Of a stretch of 64,000 nucleotides of DNA, positions 16,541 through 18,902 are shown one piece after another. The DNA is from an uncultured Erysipelotrichaceae bacterium (lineage in GTDB: Bacteria; Bacillota_I; Bacilli_A; RF39; UBA660). The stretch's first letter is position 1. Each line of letters starts with the position of its first letter. Location of the stretch: the NCBI GenBank assembly GCA_902801825.1, contig CADCJS010000002.1, forward strand, positions 33,557 through 97,556, written 5' to 3'. The notes beneath the pieces were generated by a model. The model did not search any database, was not told the DNA's origin, and saw only the letters and a program-made list of their open reading frames with translations. Made by a program: the position numbers and the translations under genes.

Positions 16541-18568
16541 ATGTGGAAGGTGAAAAAATTGCATAAGTTTATTAAACAAACAGGAATAAAAGACTGCGGA
16601 GTATGTTGTATTTATAATATATTAAAACTAAATAATGAAGATACTTCTATAGAAAAATTAAGAGATAAAACTAAAACAGATAAAAATGGAACATCAATTT
16701 ATAACATGGTAAAAACCTTTCAATATTTAAGTTATGATTCAAAAGCATATGAAACAACTATTGATAATTTAAAAAATATGAATTTACCTGTAATTGGCTA
16801 TATTAATATTAGTGGTTATAATCATTATGTAATCATTAAAAAAATAATAAAAAACAAAATATATATTTTTGATCCTATAAGAGGAAATATAAAATATAGT
16901 GAAGAAGAATTTAAAAAAGAATTTTTAAATGTAATTATTACTTGTAGCAAAATAAAACCTCTAACTAACAAAAAACTAAGTAATTATTTTATTTCATTAT
17001 TAAAAACAAAACGTTATCAAATTTCTATTGTATTATCATTCATACTATTTAGTTCCATATTATCAATTGTTTTTAGTTTATACTTAAAAACTATAGTAGA
17101 AAATAAATCTATTATAATATTGTTCTTATTTTTGATACTACTTTTAATTAAATCTGTTCTAAATTATATTAAAGATATTTTCATATTAAAATTTAATAAA
17201 AATATAAATGCAGAATTAAGAAATAATACTTATGAAAAAATTTTTAATCTTCCAATTCTTTATCATCACAATAGACCAACCGGAGATATTATATCAAAAG
17301 TTAATGATCTAAATTATATAAAAGAATTTATTTATGAATTATCATTTTCCTTGTTATTAAATATTATACTTACTATATTTTTGATAATATTCTTTATTTT
17401 CTATTCTTTTAAAAATATTATATTTATTTTTATTCCAATTCTTATAATTCTTATTAACCATTTATTAAAAAGAAATATATTAAATAATTATATTAAAAGA
17501 GACATAGACAATAACACAAATGTAAATATTAGTTTTATAGATTCACTATCTAATATTGATACTATAAAAAATTTAAATTTAACTGAAAAATTTATTTTAA
17601 AAAATAAAAATATATACACTAAATATTTAAATGATAATAATGAATTAAATAAAAAAATATTAAATTATTCATATATTAATGACATAGTAACTGATCTTTT
17701 TAATCTTATAATAATATTTGTAAATATTAATAGTTCTGTATCTAAAATAATACTTATAAATTCTTTATATATTATACTATTTGATTCAATAAAAAAAATA
17801 TTAAGTATTGATAATATATTTATAAACTCAAAGGCGTCGTATAATAGGATTAATGATTTATTGAATTATGATATTAATGATGGAGATAAGAATATTAATT
17901 CAATAAATAAAATACAATTTATAAATGCATATTTTAGTTATGACGATAAAAATTATATAATTCATAATTATAATCTATTAATTAATAAAAATGAATTTAT
18001 TTTAGTTAATGGAAAAAGTGGTGTTGGAAAAAGTACTATATTTAAACTTTTAAATAAAGAAATATTTTTAAATAAAGGATCTATTAAAATAAATAATATA
18101 AATATTAATAATATAACGAGTAACTCATTAAAAAATAATATTTGTTTTGTTAATCAAAATGAAAAATTATTTAATGATAGTATTTATAATAATATATTAT
18201 TATATAAAAAAGTAGATAAAAAAGAATTAGATAAAATATTAGATATATGTTTAATAAAGGATTTTTTAGATAAGAAAGAAATAGATTTAAATTTTATGAT
18301 TGAAGAGAATGGTTTTAATATTAGTGGTGGTGAAAGGCAAAAAATAATTCTAGCTAGGTCTTTATTAAGAAATACTAATTTTATTATATTTGATGAAACT
18401 ATGAATGAAATTGATATTGATAGTGAAAGAAAAATACTAAAAAATATAAAAACTGAATACAAAAAAACTATTATATTGATATCACATAGAGACAATAATA
18501 AAGATTTATTTGATAGGATTATAAACATAGGAGGTAGTAATGAAAGAGTTAAGTGTATCTCAAACTAA
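16541..18568 (+). CDS. bacteriocin-processing/export ABC transporter: C39 peptidase domain + TMD + ATPase (SunT/LagD/ComA type)
   Basis: N-terminal 'QTGIKDCGVCCIYNIL' C39 Cys-protease motif. Six TM helices. Walker A 'GKSGVGKST', signature 'LSGGERQKIILARSLL', Walker B 'IIFDETMNEID'. The TTG at 16559 with a GGAAGGTGA RBS is an alternative start. Confidence 0.85.
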   Translation: MWKVKKLHKFIKQTGIKDCGVCCIYNILKLNNEDTSIEKLRDKTKTDKNGTSIYNMVKTFQYLSYDSKAYETTIDNLKNMNLPVIGYINISGYNHYVIIKKIIKNKIYIFDPIRGNIKYSEEEFKKEFLNVIITCSKIKPLTNKKLSNYFISLLKTKRYQISIVLSFILFSSILSIVFSLYLKTIVENKSIIILFLFLILLLIKSVLNYIKDIFILKFNKNINAELRNNTYEKIFNLPILYHHNRPTGDIISKVNDLNYIKEFIYELSFSLLLNIILTIFLIIFFIFYSFKNIIFIFIPILIILINHLLKRNILNNYIKRDIDNNTNVNISFIDSLSNIDTIKNLNLTEKFILKNKNIYTKYLNDNNELNKKILNYSYINDIVTDLFNLIIIFVNINSSVSKIILINSLYIILFDSIKKILSIDNIFINSKASYNRINDLLNYDINDGDKNINSINKIQFINAYFSYDDKNYIIHNYNLLINKNEFILVNGKSGVGKSTIFKLLNKEIFLNKGSIKINNININNITSNSLKNNICFVNQNEKLFNDSIYNNILLYKKVDKKELDKILDICLIKDFLDKKEIDLNFMIEENGFNISGGERQKIILARSLLRNTNFIIFDETMNEIDIDSERKILKNIKTEYKKTIILISHRDNNKDLFDRIINIGGSNERVKCISN

Positions 18569-18680
18569 AGATATGTATGCTGGTGCAATTTCTGCAGGAG
18601 TAATCGCAGGTATTTGGGCTGCAGTATCTTTTGTAGTAGGGATATTTGATGGATATTCTAGACCATTTAAATGTAGATAA
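18540..18680 (+). CDS. double-glycine-leader bacteriocin-like prepeptide A (46 aa)
   Basis: AGGAGG RBS. Sequence MKELSVSQTKDMYAGA|ISAGVIAGIWAAVSFVVGIFDGYSRPFKCR. The leader ends in GA. The mature part has GxxxG motifs and a single C-proximal Cys. Confidence 0.55.
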   Translation: MKELSVSQTKDMYAGAISAGVIAGIWAAVSFVVGIFDGYSRPFKCR

Positions 18681-18695
18681 AGAAAGGGTGATTTT

Positions 18696-18860
18696 TTGAA
18701 AGAATTAAGTTTAGAAAAACAAAAAGAACTATATGCAGGAGGAATGACTGGTTCATTATGGAGTGCAATCTATAGATCTGTAAATGTATTTACTGATTTG
18801 GGTAGATATCTAGGTTCATCAATAAGAAGATTTAGTGAAAGAAAATTTTGTAATTATTAA
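18696..18860 (+). CDS. double-glycine-leader bacteriocin-like prepeptide B (54 aa, TTG start)
   Basis: AAGGGTGA RBS. Sequence MKELSLEKQKELYAGG|MTGSLWSAIYRSVNVFTDLGRYLGSSIRRFSERKFCNY. The leader is near-identical in pattern to lactococcin G alpha (MKELSEKELRECVGG). Paralogous to peptide A. Confidence 0.55.
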   Translation: MKELSLEKQKELYAGGMTGSLWSAIYRSVNVFTDLGRYLGSSIRRFSERKFCNY

Positions 18861-18869
18861 TTTATTAAT

Positions 18870-18902
18870 AGATTAGATTTTGTTATCTAATCTATTTTAT
18901 TT
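18870..18902 (+). terminator. rho-independent terminator closing the bacteriocin operon
   Basis: agattagat-tttgtt-atctaatct hairpin followed by ATTTTATTT. Confidence 0.6.

Follow-up and report, generated by a model that had tools for sequence, protein, structure and literature searches.

A candidate two-peptide, class IIb-like bacteriocin module with a peptidase-containing ABC exporter in an uncultured low-GC Erysipelotrichaceae bacterium

A stretch of 64,000 nucleotides (nt) from an uncultured Erysipelotrichaceae bacterium (assembly GCA_902801825.1, contig CADCJS010000002.1, positions 33,557 to 97,556 of the forward strand), referred to here as the window, contains a gene for a peptidase-containing ATP-binding cassette (ABC) transporter (PCAT), which is followed directly by two small genes, here named pepA and pepB. 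On balance, the unit probably represents a new family of class IIb-like bacteriocins composed of two unmodified peptides, from uncultured gut and anaerobic Firmicutes with low guanine + cytosine (GC) content. A class IIb-like operon had been proposed at this site in a first-pass annotation of the DNA. The pairing of the peptides, the exporter and the GxxxG motifs of that proposal have stood; the unit has no immunity gene, and its peptides are not members of a curated bacteriocin family.

Gene order and signals of the module

The unit and the hairpins on either side of it are composed as follows.

16491-16520, + strand: hairpin that terminates the upstream gene (dG -15 kcal/mol, z -5.9; none of 200 shuffles folded as well)
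16559-18568, + strand: peptidase-containing ABC transporter, 669 amino acids (aa) from TTG 16559 (Pfam domains, homologue N-termini, ribosome-binding site)
18540-18680, + strand: pepA prepeptide, 46 aa, ATG start (open reading frame, ribosome-binding site, profile homologues)
18696-18860, + strand: pepB prepeptide, 54 aa, TTG start (open reading frame, homologues, conserved MKELS)
18867-18896, with a U-tract to 18905, + strand: A/U-rich, intrinsic-terminator-like hairpin of 12 bp (dG -12.2, z -4.2)

Both small open reading frames (ORFs) lie exactly where they had been placed before, on the same strand and in the same frame, 15 nt apart and directly 3' of the ABC gene, whose stop is overlapped by the pepA start by 29 nt. 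The ribosome-binding sites (RBSs), which had been described as good, are AGGAGG, 5 nt 5' of the pepA ATG, and AAGGGTGA, 4 nt 5' of the pepB TTG. As read from the DNA, the prepeptide genes pepA and pepB lie side by side in one orientation, and their coupling to the exporter is tight or translational.

The upstream hairpin sits between the gene of a membrane protein of about 297 aa and the exporter unit. The downstream hairpin, with its U-tract, is the terminator that had been reported at the end of the unit. Both were scored by RNA folding; a consensus terminator scanner found neither, because they contain few G-C pairs (fewer than 3 in the hairpin after pepB). A promoter scan of this AT-rich DNA returned fewer sites than in shuffled sequence. 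Judged by its signals and gene order, the unit is a self-contained three-gene secretion module, a block resembling a transcription unit. No immunity or accessory gene was found among the ORFs of the operon or adjoining it, in agreement with the first-pass annotation, and by its predicted gene content the window holds the minimal version of the module.

The two small genes and their products

The predicted mature peptides are the following.

18588-18677, + strand: pepA mature peptide, ISAGVIAGIWAAVSFVVGIFDGYSRPFKCR (alignment, hydrophobicity)
18744-18857, + strand: pepB mature peptide, MTGSLWSAIYRSVNVFTDLGRYLGSSIRRFSERKFCNY (alignment, charge, AlphaFold2 model)

Short ORFs, one of them with a TTG start, in a genome of 21.7% GC (the value of the window) that yields many spurious ORFs might be chance ORFs in an AT-rich intergenic tail. 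The comparative data refute this explanation, and its probability is close to nil. Protein-level conservation extends over more than 100 loci, with a synonymous divergence (dS) of 0.7-1.6 and a ratio of nonsynonymous to synonymous divergence (dN/dS) of 0.1-0.3. Shine-Dalgarno-like (GGAGG-type) sequences are found 5' of both peptide starts in 12 of 12 loci tabulated, and the order and length of the ORFs are constant. For these reasons the small ORFs are regarded as real genes. Against the nearest other species (locus L023), the mature parts of pepA and pepB give dN/dS values of 0.11 and 0.13, respectively. For the pepA prepeptide, a value of 0.15 was obtained.

The TTG start of pepB stands because the relatives conserve the N-terminal MKELS and begin it with ATG. 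An internal start at ATG 18744, which had been raised as an alternative that would remove the leader, is not upheld: the AGGAGG before this ATG consists of the Ala-Gly-Gly codons and is located only 1 nt from it.

Mature pepA consists of a hydrophobic helix of about 20 residues, followed by DG and the basic tail RPFKCR (net charge +2). Its mean hydrophobicity of 0.78 and hydrophobic moment of 0.13-0.26 describe a uniformly hydrophobic peptide. Mature pepB is cationic and amphipathic, with a net charge of +4, an isoelectric point of 10.0 and a hydrophobic moment of up to 0.72; its AlphaFold2 model is a single helix over residues 6-48 with a predicted local distance difference test (pLDDT) score of 75. 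Both peptides had been called amphipathic, a description that fits pepB but not pepA.

In the alignments, G34, D37, G38, R41 and C45 are invariant in pepA, and D34, G36, G40, S41, S42, R44 and C52 in pepB, the core of which is DLGRYLGSSIRR. Each peptide thereby carries an invariant GxxxG (G34-G38 in pepA, G36-G40 in pepB), and these motifs are retained in distant members of the family; of the GxxxG/AxxxS packing motifs proposed at first, it is GxxxG that the alignments bear out. The C-terminal Cys is present in 58 of 61 pepA-like profile matches and in all 81 pepB-like sequences. One pepA variant without Cys (P0051) lies on a contig of 524 bp that stops before the pepB Cys. This Cys had been placed three residues from the C-terminus of each peptide; it is third from the end in pepB, but penultimate in pepA.

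A profile of pepA gave only weak matches in the PDB (E 0.04-0.2), to the FXYD single-pass subunits of Na/K-ATPase (phospholemman and the gamma subunit). FXYD subunits, too, have a basic juxtamembrane tail with Cys behind a transmembrane helix, and the likeness is probably compositional. The PDB sequence search with both peptide profiles returned only transmembrane similarities at chance level.

Leaders and cleavage site

The leader peptides were assigned as follows.

18540-18587, + strand: pepA leader, MKELSVSQTKDMYAG(A) (family register, TIGR01847, AG[G/A/S] covariation)
18696-18743, + strand: pepB leader, MKELSLEKQKELYAG(G) (family register, AG[G/A/S] covariation)

Most leaders of the family are canonical double-glycine leaders of 15 residues, with M-15, L-12, E-8, L/M-7, I/V-4, G-2 and G-1, and the pattern M..L...EL..I.GG is seen across 63 representative clusters. 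A pepB relative, P0020, passes TIGR01847 over residues 1-15 (20.4 bits, cut-off 15.7). The assignment of double-glycine leaders is therefore sound for the family, while the leaders of the window itself are degenerate forms. The L-12, E-8 and L-7 that had been read into them are not borne out: E-8 and L-7 occur in neither register, and L4 falls at -12 only with a cut after residue 15, moving to -13 with a cut after residue 16.

Leaders of the window's sub-lineage end in Y-A-G-[G/A/S], that is, YAG-A in pepA and YAG-G in pepB. Of 44 sequences with AG at positions 14-15, 42 have G, A or S as residue 16, against 43 of 58 among those with GG at these positions (Fisher p 0.006, uncorrected for phylogeny). 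This covariation suggests a one-residue shift of the cut site, to G15-A16 in pepA and G15-G16 in pepB. Cleavage is thus predicted after G15-A16 and after G15-G16, respectively, which agrees with the cut after GA/GG proposed at first. A cut after A14-G15 is the alternative in both peptides, and the degeneracy of the leaders makes the site uncertain by one residue.

The exporter

Domains and motifs of the exporter are given below.

16565-16951, + strand: C39 double-glycine peptidase domain (PF03412, 111.6 bits)
16595-16597, + strand: C39 catalytic Cys13 (alignment to PCAT1 peptidase, motif search)
16823-16825, + strand: C39 catalytic His89 (alignment to PCAT1 peptidase, motif search)
16871-16873, + strand: C39 catalytic Asp105 (alignment to PCAT1 peptidase, motif search)
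17963-18406, + strand: nucleotide-binding domain (PF00005)
18011-18037, + strand: Walker A, GKSGVGKST (motif search)
18320-18340, + strand: ABC signature, ISGGERQ (motif search)
18383-18397, + strand: Walker B, IIFDE (motif search)

The first-pass identification of a C39/ABC exporter with its catalytic set is borne out by the Pfam domains (Peptidase_C39, E 3e-32; ABC_membrane; ABC_tran) and by Gln7, Cys13, His89 and Asp105, which match the active PCAT1 peptidase residue by residue. A C39 domain with catalytic Cys and His, a six-helix transmembrane domain and a nucleotide-binding domain are all present in one chain, as in other PCATs. Two details have to be corrected. The signature, reported as LSGGERQ, is in fact ISGGERQ; and the longest ORF, which runs from ATG 16541 to 18568 (675 codons) and had been taken as the gene, probably starts too early. 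TTG 16559 is the likelier start because it is preceded by the RBS GGAAGGTGA and because homologues begin M[RK]Y[IV]KQ.

When the whole chain is compared, the closest relatives among solved structures are PCAT1 (4RY2, E 1.8e-59) and ComA (8HF4). The top-scoring curated model is NF045998, the Mbov_0121 family of mycoplasmas, which fits the Bacilli, Erysipelotrichaceae or Firmicutes labels given by depositors to most of the related genome bins. The score of 297 bits is, however, well under the cut-off of 500, and the exporter is not a member of that family. TIGR01193 was also not reached (245 bits, cut-off 524), so the exporter is a divergent member of the superfamily outside the TIGR01193 subfamily.

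PCAT1 of Clostridium thermocellum (PDB 4RY2, 6V9Z, 7T54) resembles the system of the window in its full-length exporter, in the C39 catalytic residues and in the position of its cargo gene directly downstream; the function of the cargo, CtA, is not known. CtA, of about 90 aa, is the one cargo of its exporter. In the module described here there are instead two short cargos that look unrelated and are always paired.

Distribution and variants of the module

The trio of exporter, pepA and pepB, in this order, was found in every related locus examined, about 130 in total. Thirty-two pepB homologues of 52-70 aa, mostly 54-55 aa, were found in a collection of 5.8 billion proteins. For pepA, a word search gave 2 homologues, and a profile search of 1.84 billion representatives gave 63 clusters at 50% identity. 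The order is constant in 15 of 15 genome and contig loci and also in the distant loci L016-L020. A degenerate DNA pattern, written by hand for G[IVM]xDGxxRP[LF]KC and run against metagenomes, produced 109 stretches, all of which are true pepA genes and 92 of which are distinct. A pepB-like gene follows pepA in all 81 stretches with enough flanking sequence, and an ABC gene precedes it in 36 of the 37 with enough upstream sequence. One stretch, JAEIGA010000119.1, is 99.6% identical to positions 17092-22058 of the window.

The contigs of relatives have a GC content of 0.17-0.32, apart from three short stretches at 0.37-0.46. The few record titles that name a source mention human gut, activated sludge, water-buffalo reticulum, and Hadza and Nepal stool. 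Accession styles and titles point to gut, rumen and digester or sludge metagenomes, and the hosts of the family are very low-GC uncultured Firmicutes.

The ten clusters that were looked up list 28 members, none with a name for the peptides, no Pfam or NCBIfam model covers pepA or pepB, and a literature search for the peptide motifs returned no relevant paper. If the peptides are antimicrobial, they constitute a large and wholly unannotated family of two-peptide bacteriocins, with at least 92 distinct pepA variants and 63 clusters, which Pfam and NCBIfam do not recognise.

The three-gene form is the commonest and accounts for 21 of 36 loci. Two additional genes occur in other loci. In 11 of 36 metagenome modules, an ORF of 109-160 aa with a single transmembrane (TM) helix is located between the exporter and pepA. 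These intermediate ORFs are fast-evolving; those of the distant loci (L016:6606-7004, 132 aa; L019:4870-5313, 147 aa) belong to no Pfam family and resemble neither each other nor the window nor the 297-aa protein upstream of the exporter. A third ORF of 49-59 aa, without a leader, is found under strict criteria in 22 of 72 related loci (L030, L036, L040, L064 and L119 among them), where it overlaps pepB at its 3' end, and is also seen at L015:6150-6299. The overlap ranges from 4 to 23 nt; in 19 of these 22 loci it is 13 or 16 nt. The product has a basic N-terminus, a TM helix and the motif [LF]GxxxG[ST]xxR, and ends in a terminal Cys in 10 of 22 cases. Its family aligns with the C-terminal core of pepB over 28 columns (hhalign probability 81.5%, E 1.1e-5). 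The intermediate and the third ORF tend to occur together (both in 7 loci, neither in 21, only one in 8). In position and character, the third ORF resembles a bacteriocin immunity gene, and is a candidate immunity or decoy protein. It is absent from the window and from its sub-lineage.

A few loci depart from the usual organisation. In L005, a water-buffalo rumen bin, the exporter (4176-5873) has kept C39 and lost Walker A and the signature, with pepA and pepB intact; the module can therefore decay. In L009 (2270-6162), a gene for a surface-protein-like product of 1046 aa lies between pepA and pepB, the sole locus seen with a split pair. The 102-aa protein P0086 is a pepA-like and a pepB-like prepeptide fused through the intergenic RBS region, probably by stop-codon read-through or as a gene-calling artefact. 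An apparently split ABC gene in L022 was rejected as a frameshift, since the interruption is an NNN scaffold gap.

Comparison with class IIb bacteriocins

Pairs of peptides with GxxxG and a cationic amphipathic partner are the signature of class IIb bacteriocins, whose helices have been proposed to pack in parallel through GxxxG, and the definition of the class requires an immunity gene in the operon of the peptides (PMC2850506). Double-glycine leaders of 15-30 residues that are cut behind Gly-Gly, and antibacterial activity for which both peptides are needed at about equal amounts, also characterise the class. Lactococcin G, enterocin 1071, plantaricin EF/JK, ABP-118/salivaricin P and lactacin F were compared here as examples (PMC2850506). 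The window shares with them two different prepeptide genes side by side in one operon, leaders of the double-glycine type (clear for the family, but degenerate in the window itself), a GxxxG in each peptide, and cationic helical products of 30-40 aa. A dedicated C39-ABC exporter within the unit is a further likeness to lactococcin G. Thus the pairing, the exporter and GxxxG are found in the window, but the immunity gene and the accessory protein are not.

Two other differences concern the peptides themselves. Each carries one conserved C-terminal Cys. The class IIb peptides characterised so far are known to have no Cys or an intramolecular pair. Moreover, conservation is at the level of housekeeping genes and the locus is syntenic and chromosomal in the present family.

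The leaders had been called strikingly similar to that of lactococcin G alpha. The likeness is confined to sub-threshold matches in relatives: the window peptides do not match the lactococcin G and enterocin 1071 models (NF038035, NF038034, PF11632) at E<=1, and the best scores among the relatives are 20 bits (cut-off 37) and 17.3 bits (cut-off 29.4), with matches that are mostly in the leader. A comparison with Pfam Bacteriocin_IIc and lactococcin-G-like families, which had been suggested as a check, likewise reached no threshold. With PF10439 Bacteriocin_IIc (threshold 27.1 bits), pepA of the window scores 14.0, pepB gives nothing and the best relative scores 21.5. With TIGR03949 (lactobin A/cerein 7B, cut-off 21.5 bits), pepA of the window has no match, and the best relative, pepA of L010, scores 17.2. 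Although weak, the sub-threshold matches are consistently directed at bacteriocins, which speaks for the bacteriocin reading: Bacteriocin_IIc, LcnG-beta, lactococcin G alpha/beta, the cerein 7B family and MccV.

Evidence against a bacteriocin and alternative explanations

Several observations weigh against a bacteriocin. None of the curated bacteriocin families is reached at threshold by the window peptides. Their leaders have Ala at position 14 and are without E-8 and L-7, and no leader model matches them at E<=1. Between pepB and the terminator no candidate immunity gene, sought as an ORF of at least 20 aa with membrane character, was found; the window has no LcnD/HlyD-like accessory protein, and no regulator is found in or adjoining the operon. 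Since the three-gene form is the commonest in the family, producers are often without visible self-protection. The remaining points concern location and evolutionary rate. The locus is chromosomal and syntenic, sharing RecD2, a sporulation-type sigma factor, PrsW, rpsU, yqfC and yqfD across species, and searches of plasmid and phage collections gave no match to pepA or pepB. Identities of the relatives to the window are as follows.

Mature pepA: 42-81%
Mature pepB: 28-77%
Exporter: 33-55%
RecD2: 63-71%

The cargo is constrained at least as strongly as the transporter in most comparisons, and pepA in all of them; with RecD2 as the comparison, the peptides are conserved at housekeeping level. 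Such slow evolution is unusual for bacteriocins. Together with the syntenic chromosomal site and the lack of plasmid or phage matches, it suits a physiological or self-directed role better than that of an arms-race toxin.

In a self-directed role, the peptides, once processed by the PCAT, would act in or on the envelope of the producer, as a small heteromeric channel or regulator or in sporulation-linked fratricide or cannibalism of kin, instead of as a weapon between species. Besides the housekeeping pace of the peptides, which is slower than that of the exporter in most comparisons, and their conserved chromosomal site without plasmid or phage matches, this is consistent with the 21 of 36 modules that have no immunity gene and with the resemblance of pepA to a single-pass anchor, although the likeness to FXYD-type subunits is weak (E 0.04). 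It is nevertheless unlikely. Two peptides with GxxxG and a cationic amphipathic partner are the signature of class IIb; the L005 exporter without Walker A and signature suggests a dispensable module; and the immunity-like third gene of some relatives implies that the pair can harm a cell. Furthermore, we know of no PCAT that delivers housekeeping membrane peptides. If the pair is not antimicrobial, the module would offer a rare example of a PCAT that handles two conserved peptides with a physiological role.

Secreted signals would be an improbable alternative, in which the peptides are pheromones of the ComC/BlpC/PlnA type that leave the cell through a ComA-like transporter. The exporter has ComA among its closest solved relatives, ComA/ComC and BlpA/BlpC of streptococci (PDB 8HF4, 3K8U) share its architecture and the logic of double-glycine leaders, which pheromones and bacteriocins both use, and the strong conservation of the mature sequences would fit recognition by a receptor. 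Nevertheless, a nearby gene for a histidine kinase or response regulator is missing both from the window and from the relatives inspected, and the peptides appear membrane-active in character and not like soluble signals: pepA, with 20 uniformly hydrophobic residues, is unlike known diffusible pheromones, and strict pairing of two GxxxG peptides is foreign to pheromone systems. Less probable still, and by a good deal, are precursors of ribosomally synthesised peptides with post-translational modifications (RiPPs), with the single conserved Cys of each peptide as the site of a modification such as a thioether or an S-linked group. Leaders of relatives do match models of lanthipeptide and radical S-adenosylmethionine (SAM) RiPP leaders weakly; yet LanM, LanB, LanC, radical SAM enzymes and glycosyltransferases are all absent from the surroundings of the module in the window and in the related loci inspected, and what is conserved is the exporter, pepA and pepB only.

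Proposed mechanism

For the two-peptide bacteriocin preferred here, a mechanism can be proposed by analogy and from the anatomy of the peptides. As in PCAT1, ComA and LagD-type exporters, the C39 domain would bind the amphipathic leader of about 15 residues and cut after a site of the Gly-Gly type, and the transmembrane domain would export pepA (30-31 aa) and pepB (38-39 aa), driven by ATP. pepA may then form a hydrophobic helix that spans the membrane, anchored by the basic RPFKCR, and pepB a cationic amphipathic helix. By the model for class IIb, transmembrane pepA and amphipathic pepB would pack in parallel through GxxxG (PMC2850506). A disulfide between the single conserved Cys in the tail of each peptide is possible, and the pair would make the membrane permeable, probably once bound to a conserved membrane protein as receptor.

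A more specific version is tentative. In this version, pepA and pepB would be an obligate heterodimer locked by a disulfide. The third ORF, a leaderless, membrane-anchored look-alike of pepB that would belong to an ancestral five-gene version of the module, might capture pepA through its GxxxG[S/T]xxR helix, often with a terminal Cys of its own, and thus give immunity by acting as a decoy. The lineage of the window would have lost the third ORF, and would tolerate the toxin or use it on itself. To our knowledge, no disulfide-locked architecture has been described in two-peptide bacteriocins. The paired Cys, the pepB-like third gene and the frequent lack of an immunity gene bear on how such peptides assemble and how producers protect themselves.

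Neighbourhood of the module and other features of the window

Upstream of the exporter, and separated from it as an individual transcription unit, lies a conserved gene.

15607-16491, + strand: protein of about 294-297 aa with about 4 TM helices and a C-terminal alpha/beta domain (separate transcription unit)

This neighbour is found upstream of the ABC gene in 10 of 15 loci, the 15 coming down to 11 distinct loci without L014, a fragment at a contig end, and three P0014 contigs that are nearly identical. It has no match in Pfam or NCBIfam, and its AlphaFold2 model (pLDDT 45) is unusable. A relative of 199 aa in L008 keeps the C-terminal domain only. The protein is a possible accessory or immunity candidate; the idea that it is a relocated immunity gene was rejected after comparison with the third-ORF family (hhalign probability 0.65%).

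Other neighbours in the window are ArsP_2, Fur, an HD-like protein, a flavin adenine dinucleotide (FAD) enzyme, RecD2, a sigma factor and PrsW. A scan with Rfam located the following RNAs, which are ordinary chromosomal features.

8024-8097: one tRNA
38344-38420: ribosomal protein L21 leader, 53.6 bits
61859-62026: 6S RNA, 56.6 bits

An ORF of 475 aa at 12293-13720, without a Pfam match, has a signal-like segment at its N-terminus, repeats rich in Asn, Ser and Gly, and a hydrophobic anchor at its C-terminus, and may encode a surface protein.

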